64,000 bases of DNA from Octopus sinensis (lineage: Eukaryota), in NCBI RefSeq assembly GCF_006345805.1, contig NC_043021.1, positions 8,866,001 through 8,930,000 on the forward strand, read 5' to 3'. The notes under the pieces are model-generated. The model worked only from the letters and a program-made list of their open reading frames with translations, was not told where the DNA came from and made no database searches. Each line of letters opens with the position of its first letter. Positions within the stretch are counted from its first letter, which is position 1. Positions 3,622-63,939 of this stretch are shown one piece after another. Made by a program: the position numbers and the translations under genes.

Positions 3622-4024
3622 AATATTCTTTTCTACTCTGGGCACAAAGGACCGAAATTTTGGGGGAGAGGGCCAGTCGATTAGATCGACCCCACAACGC
3701 AACTGGTGCTCAATTTATTGACCCTGAATGGCTGGAAAGCAAAGTCGACCTCGGCGGAATTTGAACTCAGAACATAAAGCCATACGAAATACCGCTATGC
3801 ATTTCGCCCGACGTGCTAACGATTCTTATTTCTTTATTGCCCACAAGAGGGTAAACATAGAAGGGGCAAACAAGGACAGACAAGGGGATTAAGTCGATTA
3901 CATCGACCCCAGTGCATAACCGGTACTTAATTTATCAACCCCGAAAGGATGAAAGGCAAAGTCGACCTTGGTGGAATTTGAACTTAACGTAAAGACAGAC
4001 GAAATACCTATTTCTTTATTACCC
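3622..4024 (-). mobile_element. SINE-A composite: alpha-tail remnant, then an alpha-tailed unit, then a beta-tailed copy
   Basis: Reverse strand reads ...aaagaaata|ggtatttcgtc...alpha tail aaagaaata|agaatcgttagc...ccccaaaatttcggtcc...agtagaaaagaat. Confidence 0.8.
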
Positions 4025-7256: not shown

Positions 7257-7319
7257 GGCGGCGAGCTGGCAGAATCGTTAGCACGCCGGGCGAAATGCGT
7301 AGCCGTATTTCGTCTGCCG
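7257..7319 (+). mobile_element. 5' head of the SINE-A copy interrupted by the Tx1-like LINE (A-box and left TSD)
   Basis: ggcggcgagctggcagaatcgttagcacgccgggcgaaatgcgtagccgtatttcgtctgccg is nearly identical to the intact head starting at 36412; the SINE resumes after 12686. Confidence 0.95.
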
Positions 7320-7483
7320 CACATGTGTTCGTGAAGTAAGAATTGCTGTTTCGTGGTGTTAATATTGTTAACAACTGTTGTTTCTTGTTAAACTGTTGAA
7401 TAACTTAACTGTTGGAGTTTTCAATTGAAAACACTTAGTGCTTGTGGTAGCACGCGTTGTTCATTCCCCCTTTGGGGGGAAGA

Positions 7484-9011
7484 ATGTCGTCTAGCATGGA
7501 GCCTACCGTTGGAGCAGAAATACTTGTTTCTCCTGTTGAGAGGAGGAAATACATGTCCGGCGAGGAGCCAACTACAGACAAGGAAATAGGGGTTTCCCCC
7601 GCTACAAGAAGGAATAGCAGAGAGGATAATATATTTGATATTTTTGGAGATGTGTCTGAGAGCTCGTCAGAACTTTCACCAGAAGAGTTTCCGACTTTGC
7701 CAGAGAACAAAGGCATTGTGTCGAAGAGAATAATTGATGTGCCTAGCATCCAGATAGAACCAAAAAATGGAAAAAAAAGTTTTGCGTTGGCTGCTGGGGG
7801 TGGAACCCAGATACTGTCGACGAATAAAAGCGAAATTATGAAATACAGCAAAATGATGGAAATAAATGACAACAGTGTGAAAATTGAACCTCCGCAAAAG
7901 TTATTACAGAAGAAAAGCAAAAAACAATAATTTTCAAAACATATTGTCTACAAAATAGAAAAATTGAAAGAATGTCAGAAGAGAAAATAGAAAAGTGCTT
8001 AAAGCCAATATTGGGCGACGTAGTATTTCTGAGAAGAAGAAAAAAATTCGGAACGGTGGAAGTAAGGTTCACCAATAAAGAAATAGCACACAAGAACTCA
8101 GTGGAAACGTTGAAAACGAACGACGTGGAGTTAATACCCTATTATATGGGGATGAGGACGTCGCGAATAAAAATTACAAGGGTCCCGCCAGAGGTCGAAC
8201 CTATGTGGTTGTTGGCGGCAGTCCTAATCAAAGAGGTAGAAAAAATTACTCTCCTCCAGGCTACCGCTACGGAAAACCCACGCTGGGATGGTAAAACAAT
8301 TAATCTTCTCATTCAAGCGGACCCTAAAATAATTCAAACAATTCCTGAGACAATTGAGGTAGGGGAGGAGAACCTCGTGGTGTTTGTTGAGGGCCGAAAA
8401 CCTCGATGTTTTTTATGTGGTCAATTAGGCCACATTCGAAGGAACTGCAAGGAAAATGAAGAAGAGGAGGAAGAGGAGAAAAAAGACAAAGAGGAAGAAG
8501 ATAAAGAAGAAACAGATGAGAAAAAACAACAAACAAAAGAAAAATACAACCAGCAACCCAGCCGAGAGCGGCGACTACTACAGAACAACGACCAAAAAAG
8601 ACTGCCAGAAGAGAAAAAGAAGAAAAAGGCATAATAGCCGTATACACTAAAGATACTGAGCTCATGAGAGACATTCAACTCATAAAGACTGTAAAAAAAA
8701 TTGATAACCTTTCAGAGGAATTTATCAATTACGACATATATGAAGTCTCAAATAAGACTTATAGAATTCTACAAAATAAGTACAGAAAGACTGTATCTTC
8801 ATTGAGATTAGATTTTAACAAGTCGATATTTCATGGATTACCAGCTCCGATCCCGCGAGAAAAGGAAAAGGTGGAGATTCCCCCTCCACCTGATAATTCT
8901 GTGTCGGTGGTGAGACGGGATTTTGACAAATCTATTTCCCAAGACCGTCCACCTCCGACCCTGGATAAAAAAAAGGTGGAGGGTCCCCCTCCACCGGACA
9001 ATCCTAATTAA
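7484..9011 (+). pseudogene. ORF1 (gag-like nucleic-acid-binding protein, one CCHC knuckle), about 510 codons if two 1-nt frameshifts are corrected
   Basis: ORFs 7457-7930, 7972-8634 and 8664-9011 join through overlapping open frames near 7890 (TSAKVITEEKQKTIIFKTY) and 8520-8630 (KKTARREKEEKGIIAVY). CFLCGQLGHIRRNC (CX2CX4HX4C) lies at 8407-8448. Confidence 0.8.
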
Positions 9012-9022
9012 ACAGGTAAGTG

Positions 9023-12000
9023 ATGGCTATTCACATTGGTTGTTTAAATGTTCATGGCCTGTTGTCAAGCTGGAAGCAAGGACGCTTTCTGAATGACATC
9101 AGGTCGAGAAATTTGGATGTAATTGTTGCAACGGAAACCCGGGTGAAGGGGCCAAGAGATCTGCTCCCCCTCCTGAACGGCTACGAGAAATACGTTTCTC
9201 CGAGTCGGGCGGGAGGTGGGGGTGGGGTGTTGGTCCTACTAAAAAGAAACCGGGTAGCCGAGAAAAAGTTGGTTTTTTCTGACCCAGAAGGCAGGCTGGT
9301 CGTTCTCGACTTGACATTCAGTTGTGGCAAGACAATCAGGCTGGTCGCTATTTATGCACCAAACATTATTGGCCCGCAAACTGAATATTTTCGTGGCCTA
9401 GGAAAGTTCCTAGCCACGTCGCATTCACTAGTAGTGTTAGGAGACTCTAATACAATATGTGCAGCACACACAGATTGTGTTGGCTCAAACTCGAACATGA
9501 ACAGAAAATGTAACACAGGCTTTCGGGATCTGCTAAGTCAATTTCAGCTAGCAGATCCATATAGGTTGGAGCACCCGAACACTCCACAGTGGACGTGGTC
9601 AAATAGTGACGGGTCTACCAGAACATATCTAGATAGGATTTTAATTAGAGAAAAAGATAAGTCCATAGTTGAGTGTCCACAGTTTTTTCTAGTCAGCTAC
9701 AGTGACCACAAGATGGTTACCTGTAAACTGACGGTAGATAAGTTGCATAGACAGGGATCTGGCTACTGGAAACTCAATACGTCCCTTTTGGCGATTGAGG
9801 AGTACAGAAAGCGGATCAAGATGTTAATACAGAGGGCATTAACAGGTACCATCATTAATAACAAATGGTGGTACGCCCTAAAAAGAGCCATCAAATATGA
9901 GTCTATTAGGTTTAGCATAAGTTTAGCTAAGAAGGGACGTAAAATAGGAGATGGTCTAGTTAAGGAACTAGAAGAAGCCTGGAGGACTGGTAATACAGAC
10001 CAAGCGAGGGTGAAAAGACTGGAGTTAAACCAGCATCTTGAAGCCCACCACATGGGAAGTATTACCAGAGCTAAGTTACGTGCAATGGGAAGTGAAGGAA
10101 TCAAAGCCGCTGGATGGGCCCGAGTGGTGGAAGCTCGGCAAGGAAATAGTTCCTCTATTCGGTCTTTGACGAATCAAAATGGTGTCTTGATAAACGAACC
10201 CGAGAAAATGTGTGAGGTCTTTCGGGAGTACTTCGCCCAGCTGTTCGGGAGTGACGGCGGTCCTGGTGGTGGGAGAGCCCTCGAGGACTTTCTTACCGGG
10301 CTGCCGTGCCTCTCGGGGTCGGATGCGGAGTCTTGCGAAGGGCCAATCACACTTGAGGAGGTGATGGAGGCTTTGGCCGATTGTAAAGCGGGTAAGTCAC
10401 CGGGACTTGATGGTCTTCCGTACGAGCTGTATAAATGTATGCCAGACTTGTTCGGGCAACTATTGACTGACGTGTACGCGAACTGGAAACAGAATGGGTT
10501 TATCCCCAGATCTGTGCGCCGGGGAGTAGTGACGTTGGTCAGAAAGGACCCGGACAAGGGGGACGTTCTAGAGAATTTCAGGCCCATCACTCTGTTAAAC
10601 GCAGAAGTGAAGATTTTGGCCAAGGTTCTAGCAAAAAGGTTGGCGCGTGTCGCGAATGGTATAGTCGGGGAGGCACAGACATGTGCCATCCCAGGCAGAA
10701 CCATTCAGGATACCCTCCATCTTATTCGCTATACCATAGAGAGGTTTGGTAATAAATCTGGCAAAGGTGGGGCATTGGTGCATTTGGACCAGTCTAAAGC
10801 TTTTGATAGGGTTGACCATCGATACCTAGCGACTGTACTTGCGCGGTTTGGCCTGGGCCTTGGCTTCCTCAGGTGGTTTATCGCTTTGTACCACAACATT
10901 GACTCGATAGTTCGGGTGAACGGTTTCCTTTCGAAGCCGTTCTGCATCAGACGCTCGGTTCGTCAAGGATGTCCGCTTTCACCACTTTTGTATGTGATGG
11001 CTCTCGAGCCATTACTGCAAAGGTTGAGTGGCATCCCGAGAGAACCAGGACTAGAGGAGTTTGTTACGGCTTTCGCGGATGATATCACTATCAGTGTAAC
11101 CACAGTGGTACGCCTACGTGAAGTAGGTAAGACTATTGAGGCTTACGAGGAGGTAGCAGGAGCAAAGATTAACCGGGAAAAGTCGGTCGGCTTGCAGCTC
11201 GGCACCTGGGTTGGCAAGTCGATGCCTTCAGACAGTGTTGTTAGGCGCTGGACGGAGGGACCGGTTAAGTTGCTGGGAGTCTGGTTTGGACCAGGCCTCC
11301 AGATAGAGAAGAACTGGACGGAGGTATTGAGCAGGGTGGCTGCAGTAGTCAAGACTTGGTCTTGGCGGTGGCTATCCCTGAAAGGGAGGGCGGAAGTGGC
11401 CAATGTGTTTATCGCATCGGTCATTACCTACCGCCTGACTGTCGTGCCCTGTCCGGATTCGTGGTTGATCAGGTTGGAGAGACAGCTCTTTCGCTTTTTG
11501 TGGAAGGGCAGGTCGCCACTTGTGAAACGCTCTGTCTGCTGTCAAAAGCCTTTAAATGGAGGTTTAGGGATGCCTTGGTTAATGATGCGCAGACATGCGT
11601 TGAGGTTGAGGCACCTCTGGATTCTCCTGGATAGTGAACGGGTGTGGTCTCCGCTGGCCAGACAAATGTTCCCTGAGTTCAAGAGTTTTTGCGAACAGGA
11701 AGCCTGGTGTTCTCGTAGACCGAGGTCGAGTGAGTGGCATAAAGAGTGCCGTAAGGCCCTCTTGCTGTTCCGGCGCTCGGGCAACGCCAGCGGTGGGGGT
11801 TCCACACGGATTTTATATAGTGGGTTGGTAGAGTCTGAATGCGACGATGGCCTGGGGTCGACTCTAGGTCTCGGATTTATTCAACTGGACAGCTTGTTTC
11901 ATCGTACATTCGGGTTGAGAACGTTGGACAACTTCCAAAAGTCCTTAACCTGGCAATGCTACAGAGGTGCCTTGCCCGTTTGGGATAAGCTCGCAAGACA

Positions 12001-12424
12001 TGGTAAACGTCAGTCGCCGACCTGTCCAAGATGCGGTGGGGACAGGGAAACCGTCCCTCACGCTATTGTTCAGTGTCCGGAGATAACTGAAATGTGGGCT
12101 TATGCTGAACATCTGTTGTCCGGCGAAGGAAGAGTACGGCTGTCGACTGAGTCAATTATAAAAATTGACCCACCGGGAGTTCTAACGAACGAAGGTAAGA
12201 ATTGTTTTCTCACGGTTGTAGCAATAGCAAAAGAGGCTGTATGGAATACTAGGATAAAAGGAATTAAGACAGGCAACTTTATCTCTGGTGACAATTTACG
12301 ATCCTTTTTTTCTTTTCATTTGAAAAGGAAACTGTGGCTGGAGAAGAGGTGTCTGTCAGAGTGTACGTTCCAAAAGAGATGGAAGTATGTTGCACGAGTG
12401 TTGTGCGTGCAAGGAACCGTGTGA
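9023..12424 (+). CDS. ORF2: APE endonuclease, reverse transcriptase and C-terminal zinc-binding domain, 1133 aa from ATG 9023, uninterrupted
   Basis: APE motifs LNVHGL, ATETR, IYAPN, LGDSN, YLDRI, SDH; L1/Tx1 linker WKLNTSLL; RT motifs KSPGLDGL, NFRPITLLN, LDQSKAFDRVDH, RQGCPLSPLLY, AFADD; GGLGMP; CPRC...H...C. Confidence 0.97.
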   Translation: MAIHIGCLNVHGLLSSWKQGRFLNDIRSRNLDVIVATETRVKGPRDLLPLLNGYEKYVSPSRAGGGGGVLVLLKRNRVAEKKLVFSDPEGRLVVLDLTFSCGKTIRLVAIYAPNIIGPQTEYFRGLGKFLATSHSLVVLGDSNTICAAHTDCVGSNSNMNRKCNTGFRDLLSQFQLADPYRLEHPNTPQWTWSNSDGSTRTYLDRILIREKDKSIVECPQFFLVSYSDHKMVTCKLTVDKLHRQGSGYWKLNTSLLAIEEYRKRIKMLIQRALTGTIINNKWWYALKRAIKYESIRFSISLAKKGRKIGDGLVKELEEAWRTGNTDQARVKRLELNQHLEAHHMGSITRAKLRAMGSEGIKAAGWARVVEARQGNSSSIRSLTNQNGVLINEPEKMCEVFREYFAQLFGSDGGPGGGRALEDFLTGLPCLSGSDAESCEGPITLEEVMEALADCKAGKSPGLDGLPYELYKCMPDLFGQLLTDVYANWKQNGFIPRSVRRGVVTLVRKDPDKGDVLENFRPITLLNAEVKILAKVLAKRLARVANGIVGEAQTCAIPGRTIQDTLHLIRYTIERFGNKSGKGGALVHLDQSKAFDRVDHRYLATVLARFGLGLGFLRWFIALYHNIDSIVRVNGFLSKPFCIRRSVRQGCPLSPLLYVMALEPLLQRLSGIPREPGLEEFVTAFADDITISVTTVVRLREVGKTIEAYEEVAGAKINREKSVGLQLGTWVGKSMPSDSVVRRWTEGPVKLLGVWFGPGLQIEKNWTEVLSRVAAVVKTWSWRWLSLKGRAEVANVFIASVITYRLTVVPCPDSWLIRLERQLFRFLWKGRSPLVKRSVCCQKPLNGGLGMPWLMMRRHALRLRHLWILLDSERVWSPLARQMFPEFKSFCEQEAWCSRRPRSSEWHKECRKALLLFRRSGNASGGGSTRILYSGLVESECDDGLGSTLGLGFIQLDSLFHRTFGLRTLDNFQKSLTWQCYRGALPVWDKLARHGKRQSPTCPRCGGDRETVPHAIVQCPEITEMWAYAEHLLSGEGRVRLSTESIIKIDPPGVLTNEGKNCFLTVVAIAKEAVWNTRIKGIKTGNFISGDNLRSFFSFHLKRKLWLEKRCLSECTFQKRWKYVARVLCVQGTV

Positions 12425-12670
12425 ATAGACGAGGAAAAAAAAAAAAGGAAAAATAAAAAGGTATCAGCGGTAGATCGGGGCTTGTGGGATCGGAGCGTAA
12501 CTTGATCATCGCTTCATTTGTATTGTTTTTGTACTGTGTATTCCATTCGATTTTTATGTATTGTATTTTAATTTTGATGTCACATTTATGTAAAATCATA
12601 TCGATTCACTGATCCCATCAGTTGTACTGTCCATATCTATGTTTGGCCCCCGGTGGGCAATAAAGAAATT

Positions 12671-13076
12671 CGTATTTCGTCTGCCGTTACGTTCTGAGTT
12701 CAAATTCCGCCAAGGTCGACTTTGCCTTTTGTCCTTTCGGGGTCGATAAATTAAGGACCAGTTACGCACTGGGGTCGATATAATCGACTTAATCCGTTTG
12801 TCTGTCCTTGTTTGTCCGCTCTGTGTTTAGCCCCTTGTGGGTAGTATAAAGAAATAGGTATTTCGTCTGCCGCTACGTTCTGAGTTCAAATTCCGCCGAG
12901 GTCAACCTTGCCTTTCATCCTTTCGGGGTCGATTAACTAAGTACCAGTTACGCACTGGGTTCGATTTAATCGACTTAATCTTTTGTCTGTCCTTGTTTGT
13001 CCGCTCTGTGTTTAGCCCCTTGTGGGTAGTAAAGAAATAGGTATTTCGTCTGCCGTTACGTTCTGAGTTCAAATTC
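12671..13076 (+). mobile_element. Remainder of the host SINE-A: 2.2 tandem units
   Basis: gtatttcgtctgccg starts at 12672, 12858 and 13041; B-box gagttcaaattcc; Nin/Deu-like ggtcgactttgcctttcatcctttcggggtcgataaa; alpha tail. Confidence 0.95.
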
Positions 13077-17715: not shown

Positions 17716-19142
17716 AATTGTGTGTGTGTGCGTGCGTTCGTGCGTACAGAGGTAAAAAGAGAGGGAACTGGATAGACAGATGCAGAATGTGATCCAGACA
17801 AGAGTCGCCTCGACAGCATTATAGGCCCTCCGGTAGTACAATGTTCTCGGGACCCGATAAAACAAAACTACAACATTGACAGATTTGCATTAGGCCCCGA
17901 GACCCGTATCCCTTCGCCCTCTGAGCAAACATGTCCAGTGTTCCCCTGCGTTGATGCAGACGACACTGATACAGACATGCAGACGACACTGATACAGACA
18001 TGCAGACAGTCAAGCCGACAGATTGACGCACAGTGTGATACCGACAGACAAACAGCGAATACATTAGGTTCTCCGATATATATCATTAAATGGAGAAGAA
18101 TTAAAAATTATCCAAAATAATCCGTGTAGCAGAAATCAAACAGAAAGATAATTAGTTAAACATTGAATATTTTAGATAGGAAACCCCTCTTCTTGTCGCT
18201 CCTTCATCTCGAAAGATCGCTATTGATCTAAGTCAAACGGCTACGATGATAATATTCATTGGACGACGATTCGTTGTTCACACTAAGGTTATAAGTTACT
18301 TAGTCAATTTCTATAATGTTAAAAGGTCGTTGTATAGTGTTAAAAAAAATAATATCAAACAGTCAAATGTTAAATTCTAAGAATTGGAGGAGAAATATGA
18401 GAGAATGTCAAGTAGGGTGAGAGAGATTTCTGGACTTTTCTTTCTGTCCTAGTTTCTATCGTATTTCTCTTATAGTTTCTCATATTTTTGTCTTATTTTT
18501 GTCGAATTTCCGTTGTATATCTAACATACTTTCCGTCATATTTCCGTAGTATTTCTGATATAGTTGCTATCATATATATATATATGACAGTTTTTCTGTT
18601 ACATTTATGAAGTATTTTCCACAATAGTTTCTTCTCTCTCTGTCATAATTTCATACATTTCCGTTACATTTTTCCTGCTTCGTATCACAGTTGTCAGATT
18701 TCTGTCACATTTTTGGCATATTTTAACAATAGTTTCAATCGTATTCTTGTATTTCTTTGATATTTGTCTTGTATTTCTGTCACATTTTTGTCAGTTTCTG
18801 TTGTATGTATGTCATAGATTAATTCGTCTGCCTCAGTTTCTGTCGTATTTATGCCCTGTTACATATGCAACATAGTTTCCGAGAGGTTGATACACAAGAA
18901 TTCAAAGAGAACACTACTCATTGTTCGTGTCGCTTCAAGTCAGTCATCGTCAAGCAGACTAATGATCAAAGAGATTCTAATCGAGACCATCTCGTGTTAT
19001 TTGCACTCTCGCCATTTTTTTTAAAACGGTAGGGTATGATGTGACGGTGTTTTTTCTTGTGAAGTTTGGATTTCTCTTCGAGCTCAAAACAAACAGGAGA
19101 GAAGCCTACTACATACATAACGACGGGACCCAAAATTCCCTC

Positions 19143-19149
19143 AATCATC

Positions 19150-19183
<34 letters not shown>

Positions 19184-19268
19184 CATATCATCAACATCAT
19201 CAACATCATCATCATCAACATCATCATCATCATCAACATCATCATCATCACCTTCATCAACATCATCC

Positions 19269-19309
<41 letters not shown>

Positions 19310-19376
19310 TTCATCATCAACATCATCAACAACATCATCATCATCATCAACATCATCATCATCATCATCATCATCA

Positions 19377-19421
<45 letters not shown>

Positions 19422-19822
19422 GTCATCACCATCATCACCATCATCATCATCATCATCAACATCATCACCACCATCATCATCTCCATCATCATCAACATCA
19501 ACATCAACATCATCATCATCATCATCATCGTCATCATCACCATCATCATCATCATCATCGTCATCATCATCATCATCATCATCACCATCACCATCACCAT
19601 CATCACCATCATCATCATCACCATCATCATCATCCTCATCATCCTCATCATCAACATCATCAACATCATCAACATCATCAACATCATCCTCCTCATCATC
19701 ATCATCATCATCATCATCATCAACATCATCATCATCACCATCATCATCATCCTCACCATCCTCATCATCAACATCATCAACATCATCAACATCATCCTCC
19801 TCCTCCTCATCATCATCATCAA

Positions 19823-19859
<37 letters not shown>

Positions 19860-20465
19860 GTCATCACCATCATCACCATCATCATCATCATCATCAACAT
19901 CATCACCACCATCATCATCTCCATCATCATCATCAACATCAACATCATCATCATCATCATCATCGTCATCATCACATCATCATCATCATCATCGTCATAA
20001 GCATCATCATCATCACCATCACCATCACCATCATCACAATCATCATCATCACCATCATTATCATCCTCATCATCCTCATCATCAACATCATCAACATCAT
20101 CCTCCTCCTCATCATCATCATCATCAACATCATCATCATCAACATCATCATCATCAACATCATATCATCAACATCATCATCATCAACATCATCATCATCA
20201 ACATCATCATCATCACCATCATCCTCATCCTCATCAACATCATCATCAACATCATCAACATCATCAACATCATCCTCCTCCTCTCATCATCATCATCAAC
20301 ATCATCATATCACAACATCATCAACATCATCCTCCTCCTCATCATCATCATCATCATCATCATCAACATCATCATCATCACCATCATCATCATCCTCACC
20401 ATCCTCATCATCAACATCATCAACATCATCAACATCATCCTCCTCCTCCTCATCATCATCATCAA

Positions 20466-20502
<37 letters not shown>

Positions 20503-20972
20503 GTCATCACCATCATCACCATCATCATCATCATCATCAACATCATCACCACCATCATCATCTCCATCATCATCATCAACATCAACATCATCATCATCAT
20601 CATCATCGTCATCATCATCATCATCATCATCATCATCGTCATCATCATCATCATCACCATCACCATCACCATCATCACCATCATCATCATCACCATCATT
20701 ATCATCCTCATCATCCTCATCATCAACATCATCAACATCATCAACATCATCAACATCATCCTCCTCCTCCTCATCATCATCATCAACATCATCATCATCA
20801 ACATCATCATCATCAACATCATCATCATCAACATCATCATCATCAACATCATCATCATCACCATCATCATCATCCTCATCAACATCATCATCAACATCAT
20901 CAACATCATCAACATCATCCTCCTCCTCATCATCATCATCATCAACATCATCATCATCATCAACATCATCAT
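19143..20972. repeat. 1.8-kb interrupted (ATC)n microsatellite with higher-order blocks
   Basis: Direct reading; a variant block recurs at ~19418, ~19857 and ~20500. Confidence 0.95.
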
Positions 20973-39129: not shown

Positions 39130-41990
<2,861 letters not shown>

Positions 41991-45379: not shown

Positions 45380-46740
45380 CCGGTCAAGACCGGTACAACA
45401 CAAAAGCCATGCTGGCACCAAAGGAACTTGATACTATGAGTGCGATCACCATTATCTCGATCGTCGTCTTCAGTACAAGTCCTCTGTTGATAATGTGTAC
45501 AGCAATACCCTTACTTTCTGTAACTACAGCTGTCAGATATTAATTTGTGGTTATGGCCAAGTCATGGGGCGTTGCATGTCAATTTTCCACATCTGTGCAA
45601 TGAAAGCCAATCGAGCAAACAATTTCCAATCAGCCTCTGATATCAACATCCTTTTACTTTTTGACAACCTTTTGGATGGGTTAAAGAATACATCACCTAA
45701 AACTGCTTCAGTCTTTCTTTACCCCCAAAACAAGAAAAATGCAAATCTGCTGGCACCAACGTATTCAACTTCCAACATGTCCCGCTTCACCTTATCAAAG
45801 ACAACTACACCTGAAGACGGACGCAAGAGGTCTGTACTCGCAATACGAAGTGGACTGGCTATGCTGTGTTGCACTAACGCTGTCCTGCTAACGTCCTCAA
45901 TACTTTGTTTCAGACTCTTTCTTTGCCTTACATAATCCACCATTTTGCACGGATTTCTTTTGGCTGAGCCCGTACGCCAAATAAGTACAGTACCCTGATC
46001 CTGTGTGCTGCATATAACCCCTTCTTTGGTCTTAGTGTCACTCTGGCAAGTTCTTTTCATGTACATGCTCTATTCTACCTCTACAAGCTCGTGTCCTTCT
46101 TGACTCTGACTAGCAAATTTACCTTCAAACAAAACAGTATGTGCCGAAGTATCTGCAGTGCACGAACTACACATTTCGAAATAATATGGGAAGCACTCCG
46201 TCGGTTACGACGATGAGGGTTCCGGTTGATCAGAATCAACGGAACAGCCTGCTCGTGAAATTAACGTGTAAGTGGCTGAGCACTCCATAGACACGTGTAC
46301 CCTTAACGTAGTTTTCGGGGATATTCAGCGTGACACAGAGAGTGGCAAGGCTGGCCCTTTGAAATACAGGTACAACAGAAACAGGAGGTAAGAGTGAGAG
46401 AAAGTTGTGGTGAAAGAGTACAGCAGGGATCACCACCATCCCCTGCCGGAGCCTCGTGGAGCTTTAGGTGTTTTCGCTCAATAAACACTCACAACACCCG
46501 GTCTGGGAATCGAAACCGCGATCCTATGACCGCGAGTCCGCTGCCCTAACCACTGGGCCATTGCGCCTCCACTCGAAATAATATACTCAAAGGTACAATG
46601 CAGAGTTAGGCCTATCATACGCAAGCATCCCATGAAAGGATTCTTCGAATGGTTGACAGATGCCGCACGCAGTTACCTGTTCTTGATGCTCTGATGATGA
46701 GAAAAGCATTCGCAGCCATAACCACTTACGTTGATCAGAA
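45380..46740 (-). pseudogene. Decayed DNA-transposon coding relic (tentatively Academ-like), interrupted by SINE-C
   Basis: Minus strand ...SEADWKLFARLAFIAQMWKIDMQ resembles a motif I associate with these transposon proteins; many stops. Confidence 0.3.
46188..46572 (-). mobile_element. Full-length SINE-C with 12-bp TSD
   Basis: tcgaaataatat at 46176-46187 and 46573-46584; A-box tggcccagtgg, B-box ggtttcgattcc. Confidence 0.93.
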
Positions 46741-46749
46741 TATAAATAA

Positions 46750-46980
46750 GGCGGCGAGTTGGCAGAAACGTTAGCTCGCCGGGCGAAATACTAAGCGATA
46801 TTTCGTCTGCCGTTACGTTCTGAGTTCAAATTCCGCCGAGGTTGACTTTGCCTTTCATCCTTTCGTGGTCGATAAATTAAGTTCCAGTTATGCACTAGGG
46901 TCGATATAATCGACTTAATCCGTTTGTCTGTCCTAGTTTGTTCCCTCTATGTTTAGCCCCTTGTGGGCAATAAAGAAATA
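46750..46980 (+). mobile_element. Monomeric alpha-tailed SINE-A
   Basis: Tail tctatgtttagccccttgtgggcaataaagaaat (46946-46979) is the closest match to the LINE 3' end. Confidence 0.93.
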
Positions 46981-47083: not shown

Positions 47084-47482
47084 GGGGCGGTGAGCTGGCA
47101 GAAACTTTAGCACGCTGGACGAAATACTTAGCAGTTTTTCGTCTGTCTTTATGTTCGAGTTCAAATTCCGCCGAGGTCGACTTTGCCTTTCATCCTTTCA
47201 TGGTCGATAAATTAAGTTCCAGTTATGCACTAGGGTCGATATAATCGACTTAATCCGTTTGTCTGTCTTTGTTCATCCCCTCTGTGTTTAGCCCCTTGTG
47301 GGTAGTAAAGAAATAGGTATTTCGTCTGTCGTTTATGTTCTGAGTTCAAATTCCGTCGAGGTCGACTTTGCCTGTTATCCTTTCGAGGTCAATAAACTAA
47401 GTACCAGTTGCGTACTGGGGTCGATCTTATCGACTGTACCCACTCCCCAAAATTTTCGGGCCTTGTACCTAGAGTAGAAAAG
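47084..47482 (+). mobile_element. Heterodimeric SINE-A (alpha unit then beta unit) with 15-bp TSD
   Basis: gatatccagaatctc at 47069-47083 and 47483-47497; internal junction aaagaaatag|gtatttcgtc at 47317. Confidence 0.9.
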
Positions 47483-47596
47483 GATATCCAGAATCTCTCG
47501 CCCACTAAACCCAATCTGCAATTTCTCTACAAGACCACATATAATTATATTTCCATTTCTCCTTTTTATTGTTTTAATAGTCATAAACCAAAACCA

Positions 47597-51529: not shown

Positions 51530-52160
51530 GTTAGTTAGTTAGTTAATTTGGCTCAAAAGCAAATAGCAAGGCCATGTAGGGGGACATGGAGTTAAGTACA
51601 GGGTGGTGTTCATGTAAAGAGTTCAGGCCACTTGAGGTCAAGGGAGGCTTTGAACAAAGCGGTCGTCGGCATCTTCACCATCTCGTCTGGCAGCTTGTTC
51701 CACGGATCCGCAACCCGGACGGAGAAAGCTCCTCTCCTTCGATTGAGATGAAATCGTCGCAGGTAGAGCTTTTCGGAATGACCCCGCAACCGACGCTCTG
51801 GAGCAGGAGTGAAGAACAGCTCTTTCGAGAGGTTACACTTTCCGCTTATGATGTTGTGGGCGAGAATGAGATCACCACGGCGGCGGCGTTTTTCAAGAGA
51901 ATAAAGGTCGAGCGTCCTCAGCCTTTCTTCGTAGGACAAATTTTTGAGACCATGAACCATGCGGGTAGCCAGCTTCTGGACTCTTTCGAGATGCTGTATG
52001 TCTTTGAGGAGATAAGGAGAAGAGGCTTGAATCCCATACTCCAATATGGGTCTCACCAGCGTGACATAGAGTGGTAGGAATATGGCTGCTGTGAGCATTC
52101 CGAATGACCGTCGAATCAAGAACAGAATTCCGCGTGCTTTGTTGGCAGCATGGACGCACT
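51530..52160 (-). mobile_element. 5'-truncated CR1-clade LINE (ORF2 C-terminus 52119-51610, 3' UTR, (AACT)n tail)
   Basis: LVRPILEYG...LERVQKLATRMV...SYEERLRTLDLYSLEKRRRRGDLI...LRGH...FSVRVADPWNKLP...FKASLD. Confidence 0.92.
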
Positions 52161-52384: not shown

Positions 52385-52778
52385 GTGGAAGTGGTGGAAG
52401 CACTCCGTCGGTTACGACGATGAGGGTTCCGGTTGATCCGAATCTACGGAACAGCCTGCTCGTGAAATTAACGTGTAAGTGGCTGAGCACTCCACAGACA
52501 CGTGCACCCTTAACGTAGTTCTCGGGGATATTCAGCGTGACACAGAGAGTGACAAGGCCGGCCCCTTGAAATACAGGTACAACAGAAACAGGAAGTAAGA
52601 GTGAGAGAAAGTTGTGGTGAAAGAGTACAGCAGGGATCACCACCATCCCCTGCCGGAGCCTCGTGGAGCTTTGAGGTGTTTTCGCTCAATAAACACTCAC
52701 AACGCCCGGTCTGGGAATCGAAACCACGATCCTATGACCGCGAGTCCGCTGCCCTAACCACTGGGCCATTGCACCTCC
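52385..52778 (-). mobile_element. Full-length SINE-C with 14-bp TSD
   Basis: acatctgaaaacta at 52371-52384 and 52779-52792; highly similar to 46188-46572. Confidence 0.93.
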
Positions 52779-53614
52779 ACATCTGAAAACTAACTACATA
52801 CTACACACCATCAAGTGGAGCATCGTGGAACAAGGAGAGGCAGGCTTTGTTTATCCGAAAAATCTCATATTCTTAGTTCTAAGAATTCAACTGATCTGCT
52901 AAATTCCAGATGTGAGGTTTTTATTAAATGGCAGCTACTGGACAAGTATTTTTTTACTGACAGGGAAAACAAACACCCCTCGCACAAACTTTGATTGTCT
53001 CTTTGTTGAATTAACATACATCCACCTTATTAATTGCGATTCGAACAAACCAAAGGAACGTAACTCTTGATTTTCCTTTTTCCTTTTTCTTTTTCCCATT
53101 TTCTCATTCCACATTTTGTTTTTACTTTCCTCTCGTTCTTTCTCCTGTTTTCTCGAAGACCATCTCGCTTTTTTCTTTTATTTTTTTATCATAAAAGACC
53201 AGCCATCTTGTATAGTTGAACCTGAAATATTGCTTGGAAAAACACGGCACGCCATACAAGCCTGCCCGACAATTGTGTTTTGACACTATGAAACTAATAG
53301 TAGATCGAACTTAAATTTGACGTATATTAAATTAACGATATTTTTGTGTGTAATTGCTGCGTGGGTTGTTGTCAAATCGTATATGTGAGGAAGTGACAGA
53401 ATGTGCATGTGTGTAGGGATAACGATATTGATGAAACCCCTGGGATGGAAAGAGCAAATTGGTAAGTGTTATTCGTGTGTGTGCAAGTACATAAACGAAA
53501 CAAGCCCGGGAAGAAAAGTGGGTTTTTTTTCCCGAGCTTGAGACTGCAATATTGTCAACTTCACTTCCGTGAGAAACTGCGCACACTCCAACAGTCGCAG
53601 TTTCCATCAGTTAA

Positions 53615-59316: not shown

Positions 59317-59916
59317 AGGCGACGAGCTGGTAGAATAGTTAGCAGGCCGAGCAAAATGGTTAGCGGTATTTCGTCTGCCGTTACGTTCTGAGTTCAAATT
59401 CCGCCGAGGTCGACTTTGCCTTTCATCCTTTCGGGGTCGATTAAATAAGTATCAGTTACGCACTGGGGTCGATATAATCGACTTAATACGTTTGTCTGTC
59501 CTTGTTTGTCCTCTCTATGTTTAGCCCCTTGTGGGTAATAAAGAAATAGGTATTTCGTCTGCCGTTACGTTCTGAGTTCAAATTCCGCCGAGGTCGACTT
59601 TGCCTTTCATCCTTTCGGGGTCGATTAAATAAGTACCAGTTACGCACTGGGGTCGATGTAATCGACTTAATCCGTTTGTCTGTCCTTGTTTGTCCTCTCT
59701 GTGTTTAGCCCCTTGTGGGTAATAAAGAAATAGGTATTTCGTCTGCCGTTACGTTCTGAGTTCAAATTCCGCCCAGGTCGACTTTGCCTTTCATCCTTTT
59801 GGGGTCGATTAAATAAGTACCAGTTACGCACTGGGGTCGATATAATCGACTTAATCCGTTTGTCTGTCCTTGTTTGTCCTCTCTGTGTTTAGCCCCTTGT
59901 GGGTAGTAAAGAAATA
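59317..59916 (+). mobile_element. Trimeric alpha-tailed SINE-A
   Basis: One head; units at 59366, 59550 and 59734 (period 184). Confidence 0.95.
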
Positions 59917-63423: not shown

Positions 63424-63939
63424 CCGAGGTCGACTCTGCCTTTCATCCTTTCGGGGTCGATAAATTAAGTACCAGTTACGCACTGGGGTCGATGTAATCG
63501 ACTTAATCCGTTTGTCTGTCCTTGTTTGTCCCCTCTGTGTTTAGCCCCTTGTCGGTAATAAAGAAATAAATATTTGGCCTGTCGCTACGCTCTGAGTTCA
63601 AATTCCACCGAGGTCGATTTTGCCTTTCATCCTTTCGGGGTCGATAAATTAAGTACCAGTTACGCACTGGGGTCGATGTAATCGACTTAATCCGTTTGTC
63701 TGTCCTTGTTTGTCCCCTCTGTGTTTAGCCCCTTGTCGGTAATAAAGAAATAAATATTTGGCCTGTCGCTACGCTCTGAGTTCAAATTCCACCGAGGTCG
63801 ATTTTGCCTTTCATCCTTTCGGGGTCGATAAATTAAGTACCAGTTACGCACTGGGGTCGATGTAATCGACTTAATCCGTCTGTTTGTCCTTGTTTGTCCC
63901 CTCTGTGTTTAGCCCCTTGTAGGTAGTAAAGAAAGAAAA
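63424..63939 (+). mobile_element. 5'-truncated trimeric alpha-tailed SINE-A with 15-bp TSD
   Basis: aatatgcattttctt at 63409-63423 and 63940-63954; units at 63570 and 63754 (period 184). Confidence 0.95.

Follow-up and report, generated by a model that had tools for sequence, protein, structure and literature searches.

The locus described here raises the question of which element copies an abundant short interspersed nuclear element (SINE) of Octopus sinensis, and of how that SINE is tied to a long interspersed nuclear element (LINE) that ends in nearly the same letters. The window, by which we mean the whole stretch of 64,000 nucleotides that was analysed (contig NC_043021.1, positions 8,866,001 to 8,930,000 of the forward strand, assembly GCF_006345805.1), contains a full-length L1/Tx1-like LINE, which a preliminary description of this DNA had proposed as the partner of the SINE. 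The latter is called SINE-A here; the label is taken over from that description and is not matched to a published family, and two core motifs of SINE-A gave no match in two MetaSINE supplements. The genome, 2.72 Gb in size and with 30 large contigs, abounds in microsatellites and SINEs. The answer that we consider probable is that the LINE targets a fixed site of SINE-A, that both elements end in a 3' tail characteristic of a group of L1/Tx1-like LINEs, and that several members of this group are likely to have copied SINE-A by way of it. The fixed insertion site, the shared tail, the lack of poly(A) and the SINE-in-SINE insertions at the same site can be read directly in the letters.

Insertion of the LINE at one site of SINE-A

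The LINE inserts at one fixed site inside SINE-A. In the window it splits a SINE-A copy, and the 16-bp repeat on either side of it (7304-7319 and 12671-12686), correctly reported in the preliminary description, is itself SINE-A sequence, a point absent from that description. The parts of the locus are as follows.

7257-7319, forward strand: head of the target SINE-A copy (SINE positions 1-63), identified through its blastn similarity to further copies of SINE-A and containing an A-box-like motif near 7267-7277
7304-7319, forward strand: left 16-bp repeat (SINE positions 48-63), read from the sequence
7320-12670, forward strand: full-length L1/Tx1-like LINE of 5351 bp, with which 18 whole copies align from the 5' end
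12671-12856, forward strand: remainder of the target SINE-A (positions 48-231), with the right repeat at 12671-12686, a B-box-like motif at about 12698-12708 and an alpha tail
12857-13076, forward strand: two more SINE-A units (48-231 and 48-84), joined at the same position-48 junction

Empty-site contigs in public runs join 7303 to 12671-12687. The contigs of four public runs that cover the LINE extend 12-30 letters into the SINE, which is below the 31-letter bridging rule, and they are not counted as evidence.

Across the genome, the 3' flank of the LINE enters SINE-A at position 48 in 108 of 109 loci: 30/30 among the best hits, including the window, 21/21 among further loci and 57/58 among loci from the exact-match list. 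Two of the 108 junctions follow a few slipped bases, and two loci (L002 and L008) seem to be a single locus represented twice in the assembly. In the exceptional flank CGTATT is kept and an older LINE relative follows. On the opposite side, the 5' flanks end in SINE positions 48-63 in all 30 best hits and in all 18 whole copies with a 5' end. Another 18 copies have no exact 5' end in their vicinity; three of them show a junction within 1 kb, and each of these 5'-truncated copies sits in a SINE head, the duplications being short (about 2, 6 and 11-14 nt). A preference for a target sequence is common in, and not exclusive to, Tx1 elements.

The flanking SINE parts belong to separate copies, because the SINE bodies downstream of the LINE are 89% alike (identical in 1 of 435 pairs) and because the C or G at position 48 matches across the insertion in 47 of 47 copies, where 24 would be expected; this two-sided comparison used 47 of 50 pairs and left out L142, L158 and L145, the last a duplicate of L141. 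At this position A is found in 0 of 58 LINE targets against 12 of 48 random heads, and C occupies it in 40 of the 58. The site lies between the A-box-like (SINE 11-21) and B-box-like (75-85) motifs, which were located by regular expressions written from an RNA polymerase III (Pol III) consensus; in the SINE-A head, ARAGORN found no transfer RNA (tRNA) and Rfam gave no tRNA match. When further 5' junctions were sought at SINE position 63, 110 matches were obtained, of which, by coordinates, only one listed place lies at a copy of the window family; judged on three bases, the remainder look like nested heads or internal deletions.

Directly behind one young copy, at the target motif (L419-L420), stands a scrambled older LINE relative, about 85% identical in DNA, whose 5' part is present three times. 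No tail was seen in the scrambled older relative adjoining L413.

Coding capacity and age of the LINE family

Two open reading frames (ORFs) occupy most of the element.

7484-9011, forward strand: ORF1 with a CCHC zinc knuckle, carrying two frameshifts in the window copy
9023-12424, forward strand: ORF2, open for 1133 aa, with apurinic/apyrimidinic-type (APE) endonuclease, reverse transcriptase and zf-RVT domains by Pfam

In copy L152, ORF1 is open for 509 aa. The zf-CCHC domain scores above the cut-off both in the ORF1 piece of the window and in the intact ORF1 of L152, and Pfam gave no match to Transposase_22 in either; a CCHC zinc knuckle in ORF1 is a feature of Tx1, unlike mammalian L1 ORF1. 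The domains of ORF2 are PF03372, PF00078 and PF13966 (N-terminal APE endonuclease, reverse transcriptase and C-terminal zinc finger). The closest solved protein is human L1 ORF2p (E 1.5e-64, residues 5-867), with R2 reaching only 1.7e-20, in a comparison set that showed no CR1, L2 or RTE protein. The order of domains and the affinity to L1 place ORF2 in the broad L1 clade, which includes Tx1. The element thus appears L1/Tx1-like by resemblance, the protein homologues (P0001-P0023) bearing no clade names and the tree no named Tx1 reference.

The family is young and counts about 100 copies. The 18 whole copies aligned from the 5' end are 97.8-99.8% identical, and copies differ from that of the window by about 1% (at most 3%). 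Exact matches across the genome number 114 for the tail and 98 for the 5' end, which indicates that the family is mostly full-length.

The tail shared by LINE and SINE-A

The preliminary description was built on the likeness of two 3' ends, which lie in the following features.

12636-12670, forward strand: LINE 3' tail, common to SINE-A and sister LINEs, with a stem at 12646-12649/12655-12658, a loop at 12650-12654 and AATAAA at 12659-12664
46750-46980, forward strand: stand-alone SINE-A copy used for the original comparison, with its tail at 46946-46979

A comparison letter by letter bears the likeness out: 12636-12669 and 46946-46979 agree at 31 of 34 positions, and two of the three differences fall in the 5-nt loop and one just before the GCCC/GGGC stem, as had been claimed. 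The local alignment scores 53, whereas the maximum in 2000 shuffles of the LINE tail was 29. The SINE copy chosen belongs to the best-matching tail class; the four SINE tail classes agree with the LINE tail at 28-31 of 34 positions, the commonest of them at 28. Both elements end without poly(A), as described earlier, the LINE in ...AATAAAGAAATT and the SINE in ...AAAGAAATA, and poly(A) was absent after all 109 LINE tails read. The range of 13-15 bp given for the SINE duplications proved too narrow; by an automated rule they measure 8-24 nt, mostly 13-20, in 24 of 48 elements.

The tail is not a peculiarity of the window copy. The 114 exact tails, together with its presence in 30 of 30 top copies, rule out recombination of a single copy with a SINE tail. 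Nor did any other LINE clade with the tail turn up in 864 kb, where the tail has 98 matches: 85 have a SINE body upstream, and the other 13 consist of eight from the LINE group or its ORF1-only derivative, described below, and five truncated or unassigned. The window also holds, at 51580-52158 on the minus strand, a C-terminal remnant of another LINE without a Pfam match, which is CR1/L2-like to judge from a motif; it was rejected as a source of the tail (51610-52158), its 3' end being unrelated.

A hairpin is indeed predicted in both tails, yet it is no more stable than those of shuffled sequences (z 0.55 and -0.95). The stem is predicted in most families, and its pairing beats slid controls but stands out only weakly from shuffled ones. 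Covariation in 15 tails is suggestive at best, with 83% of cells paired and 18 of 500 shuffles equally high. We infer that the reverse transcriptase recognises the tail stringently, with weak support from folding and covariation.

Self-insertion, arrays and tail classes of SINE-A

SINE-A inserts into itself at the site used by the LINE. The target motif followed immediately by a new SINE head gave 44 matches against 0 in the control, and among 20 distinct places of this kind that were read, no fewer than 12 show a complete SINE after which position 48 resumes. In 80 evenly chosen 10-kb stretches (800 kb), position 48 directly follows 22 of 70 SINE tails and position 15 three of them; seven additional tail matches there are LINE-group ends. 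Extrapolation from these 70 gives about 240,000 SINE-A tails genome-wide. An outer duplication surrounds 4 of 13 multi-unit elements, and the duplications of dispersed copies often begin with GGT, AGA or TAT. The window offers an example of the arrays.

59318-59916, forward strand: SINE-A array of a head and three bodies joined tail to position 48, with like arrays at 39800-40217 and 63424-63937

The tail classes differ in where they stand. Tails of the TAGT class are found at GG starts or position 48 in 19 of 27 cases, those of the CAAT class in 0 of 11 random ones (p 1e-4); in all loci the CAAT class, which is the closest to the window LINE tail, is found at such sites in 0 of 36. SINE copies lie 4-7% from their class majority (lowest copy 1.2%) and LINE copies about 1% from that of the window, from which it follows that the SINE burst is older than the window LINE subfamily; older LINE relatives, at 80-86%, exist besides this young subfamily.

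Several further observations concern SINE-A. A second recurrent junction lies at SINE position 14-15 (AGAA start) and involves CAAT- and CAGT-class tails as well as one LINE of the L197 family (L168, L170, L177, L247). SINE-A heads (1-63) occur up to 13 times before one body (L163-L167, L181-L183, L188-L190), a pattern that fits repeated self-insertion, with the nested unit copied afterwards, or a later tandem expansion. Some bodies change at about position 166 to beta or gamma tails, for example at 3675-3826 and 47318-47490 of the window; these tails carry a GGCC-TTGT-GCC hairpin, which the ORF1-only element has in similar form, and no LINE source of them was found in 864 kb; for the beta tail, a SINE body lies upstream in 25 of 25 matches. 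At C30:10162407-10200873, seven target-motif matches about 6.4 kb apart form a tandem array of a 6.4-kb unit. Elsewhere in the window, a long composite CAT-type microsatellite array with higher-order repeats (19139-20972) ends at a SINE-A copy (20979), and a second SINE family on the minus strand (46184-46572 and 52396-52780) has a clearer tRNA-like head and may be of the OR type.

Sister families and the group-wide tail

Protein searches of the genome revealed sister families at 55-58% and 71-74% ORF2 identity, and 12 LINE families of this genome form one clade with a support of 99 in the Shimodaira-Hasegawa-like approximate likelihood ratio test (SH-aLRT; quick tree method). The nearest clade (71-74% at the amino acid level, SH-aLRT 99) ends in AAAGAAAT and the L265 type in AATAAAAC, and many nearest-clade copies are then followed by AG or GG starts, like dispersed SINE sites. 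The tail is present in most of the sister families, among them L197, L252, L253, L265, L111, L112, L113 and L133, and in an ORF1-only element. Against the best SINE class, L268 scores 58, L111 and the ORF1-only element 54 each, the window LINE 53, L265 53, L197 46 and L112 45. A closer tail in a sister LINE, a possibility raised in the preliminary description, is by these scores present in L268, L111 and the ORF1-only element.

The partner proposed in that description was a single L1/Tx1-like LINE without poly(A). Its affinity to the L1 clade and its lack of poly(A) hold, but an exclusive pairing is not supported: sisters match the SINE tail as well or better, the SINE burst is older than the LINE subfamily, and the CAAT class shuns the position-48 site. 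On these three grounds the partner of SINE-A is likely to have been the LINE group over time, of which the window family would be a recent specialist.

The 3' neighbours of the sister families vary: (TCTA)n or (TTA)n in some, different repeats in others, and in one case (L247) position 14 of SINE-A; as read from the 3' flanks, they may be targets or terminal repeats. Young sisters seen at L111-L140 and L191-L220 pass without interval into (TCTA)n in three families and into (TTA)n in one and, judging from these flanks, may be microsatellite-specific like Kibi and Koshi. The ORF1-only element (L068 type; L081-L110) joins an ORF1 homologue to the group tail, with a changed stem and no ORF2 between them. 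It is older, and its 3' flanks recur and contain CTGATGA...GAAAC, which we take to resemble a hammerhead core; the element may presumably target a Penelope-like or retrozyme repeat.

The 16-bp duplication and a model of insertion

The 16-bp duplication is identical on both sides in only 16 of 47 copies. Counted by position in 43 pairs (four with an indel were left out), two-sided mismatches amount to 0 of 301 at SINE positions 48-54 and to 47 of 387 at 55-63, and the latter level far exceeds the expectation from the age of the LINE family. Some variants found on the 5' side only recur at unrelated loci. We infer from this pattern that the duplication is only in part a true copy of the target. 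The LINE RNA is likely to carry a few upstream SINE bases (about 55-63), whose complementary DNA would anneal to the target and prime the second strand; such annealing would yield both the uniform 5' junctions and an apparent duplication of 16 bp.

Earlier in the same process, the ORF2 endonuclease probably nicks the SINE head at 47/48, and the reverse transcriptase probably begins synthesis, with no need of poly(A), at the end formed by the hairpin plus AATAAAGAAAT. SINE-A is likely to have acquired its tail from an earlier LINE of the group and to have nested into itself at the same site, the arrays then moving as units. Each LINE insertion would part the A-like from the B-like box and so silence that SINE copy, while the spread of the SINE would supply new safe targets for the LINE. 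Taken as one joint claim, an animal LINE of the L1/Tx1 group would target the promoter region of a SINE that hijacks the machinery of its own group, with stringent, poly(A)-free recognition, entering between the A and B boxes, disabling the SINE copy and using upstream SINE bases to finish its insertions. This closed parasite loop is put forward tentatively, and in its entirety it falls somewhat short of what we would call probable.

Weighing the explanations

Several results weigh against the picture of a group-wide, stringently read tail and a SINE-A target site. The hairpin is weak in all folded tails (z -1.25 to 0.55), the covariation score is equalled by 59 of 500 shuffles in an alignment that misplaces some stems, and three intact or young families (L131, L136, L260) are without the GCCC/GGGY stem and score 18-26, within the range of shuffles. 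A search for a LINE with the exact SINE tail, by means of a LINE-type upstream motif, gave 119 matches, and the 30 read were all SINEs (SINE body by rule in 29 and by inspection in the 30th), namely SINE point variants. In 50 of 51 array junctions position 48 is G, irrespective of the letter in the head, as opposed to the C that prevails in LINE targets, so most arrays are inherited units and not separate insertions by the window LINE family. As to the duplication, positions 49-54 hardly vary and so tell little, and 55-63 still agree between the two sides above chance (16 vs 10.3, p 0.004); the donor origin is accordingly partial, and both donor and target contribute.

Some of these points feed an alternative that we hold to be unlikely, in which the tail is kept as a 3'-end signal (AATAAA) and is not read stringently, read-through RNA bases pairing with the nicked target for priming. 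The site preferences of the SINE would then mirror the bases after each source copy, and each tail class does have its own following bases (GG starts for TAGT in 19 of 27, for CAAT in 0 of 11), which match the two types of array junction (position 48 GGTA, position 15 AGAA); the weak structural support and the stemless families point the same way. Yet a Pol III SINE would need no RNA polymerase II signal and nevertheless keeps about 45 nt including the stem, the commonest SINE class has AGTAAA and not AATAAA, an element devoid of ORF2 keeps the tail, and pairing of read-through RNA is compatible with tail binding. A still less probable account, largely refuted for the bulk of copies, is the original pairing in which the window LINE family amplified SINE-A. 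The CAAT class does show the highest per-base match to the very end (31/34), and nested SINEs share the site and a similar duplication length; however, some 114 LINE copies at about 1% divergence contrast with SINEs at 4-7%, a near-absolute site specificity of the LINE contrasts with SINE copies mostly at unrelated sites, the CAAT class is missing from GG and position-48 sites (0 of 36), and sisters match as well or better.

The direction of transfer could also be reversed, the final 34 nt of the LINE having been acquired by capture out of a SINE array in which the tail lies just upstream of the target. Since the array tail directly precedes position 48 the geometry is easy, and the family match stops at 34 nt; but families at 55-58% identity beside (TCTA)n or (TTA)n, as well as families with varied targets, carry the tail, which thus predates SINE targeting and makes this capture very improbable. 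Local homogenisation may have affected a few tail bases. Least credible of all is that SINE head, LINE and SINE body were copied as one composite with no targeting: most copies are indeed full-length with the same junctions, yet the flanking SINE parts are diverse around a LINE of about 99% identity, position 48 agrees throughout, truncated copies sit in SINE heads and one copy (L043) sits in the second unit of a SINE array. The diversity of the flanks, the agreement at position 48 and the truncated copies rule such hitch-hiking out. The preferred reading is still that of a fixed SINE-A target and a tail used by several members of the LINE group.

Significance

Known stringent cases in the L1 clade come from maize and Chlamydomonas, and whether the ancestral L1-clade element was stringent is an open question (PMC3472496). 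Stringency becomes directly testable in a young L1/Tx1-like family from an animal that has intact copies, a tail and a 16-bp target that are both defined, and a SINE as its natural passenger. The sisters of the family, with the same tail and different targets, represent a natural series for mapping the specificity of the endonuclease. A likely engine can be named for one of the most abundant SINEs of the genome, and its tandem arrays are explained. A LINE landing only in a dispensable SINE amounts to a clear case of safe-harbour targeting between two selfish elements; if the closed loop is true, the SINE serves simultaneously as a passenger, as a landing site and as an aid to integration.

Comparison with known systems

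Each ingredient of the octopus system has precedent. In the literature searched, which did not extend to Repbase, Dfam, SINEBase or subscription papers, no animal L1/Tx1 pair sharing a tail and no SINE-targeting LINE was found, nor a tail-sharing, poly(A)-free animal L1/Tx1-like LINE with near-exclusive targeting of its passenger SINE. The pair is absent from the accessible portions of PMC8967140, PMC4824008, PMC4758252 and PMC5786205. An annotation of Octopus vulgaris (2026) counts 13 L1-Tx1 families as recently active, puts their insertions at 421 and leaves many SINEs unclassified; the portion available gives no LINE/SINE pairing or targets, and the associated repeat library may hold these families (PMC13282606).

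With regard to tails, stringent pairs of the L1 clade have been described for LINE1-1_ZM with ZmSINE2/3 and for L1-1_CR with SINEX-3_CR, whose LINEs and SINEs have in common a conserved hairpin end of about 45 nt, as in the octopus (PMC3472496, PMC3747384). These pairs differ in being plant or algal and in having terminal repeats, and the excerpts describe no targeting of SINEs; the three L1-clade tail pairs listed are all plant or algal, with no animal L1 or Tx1 pair in Table 1 (PMC3747384, PMC3472496). The L068-type element is comparable to HAL1, an ORF1-only non-autonomous LINE (PMC5786205), in keeping an ORF1 homologue and no ORF2; it is distinguished by its derivation from this octopus LINE group, and its copies are old and broken.

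The second-strand model recalls R2, for which 28S co-transcripts have been proposed to explain uniform 5' junctions; target sequence is placed on the RNA, and R2 of earwig and sow bug carries a duplicated downstream target with substitutions (PMC3774820). R2 differs in its restriction-like endonuclease, ribosomal DNA target and ribozyme, none of which is shown for the octopus LINE.

Target-specific Tx1 elements resemble the octopus LINE in their APE-type ORF2 and in a fixed site within multicopy sequence, and the octopus sisters adjoin (TCTA)n and (TTA)n. Dewa, for instance, inserts into tRNA arrays. Others insert into Tx1D (Tx1), U2 (Keno) or microsatellites (Kibi and Koshi), according to PMC4494074. 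The octopus LINE, which is Tx1-like by resemblance, differs in that its target is a SINE head. The closest parallel is offered by the crocodilian Tx1-Mar LINEs and SINEU, which share a Mariner target, have poly(A) and do not share a tail (Kojima, 2015; PMC4494074). In that system too, a Tx1-type LINE prefers another transposon, use by the SINE is inferred from the shared target, and tandem SINE insertions flank a 16-nt duplication. There, however, both insert into Mariner-N4_AMi, a third element, the heads of SINEU derive from small nuclear RNA, and no LINE with the 3' end of SINEU-1 was found, whereas in the octopus it is the SINE that is targeted, LINE and SINE have a tail in common and both end without poly(A).
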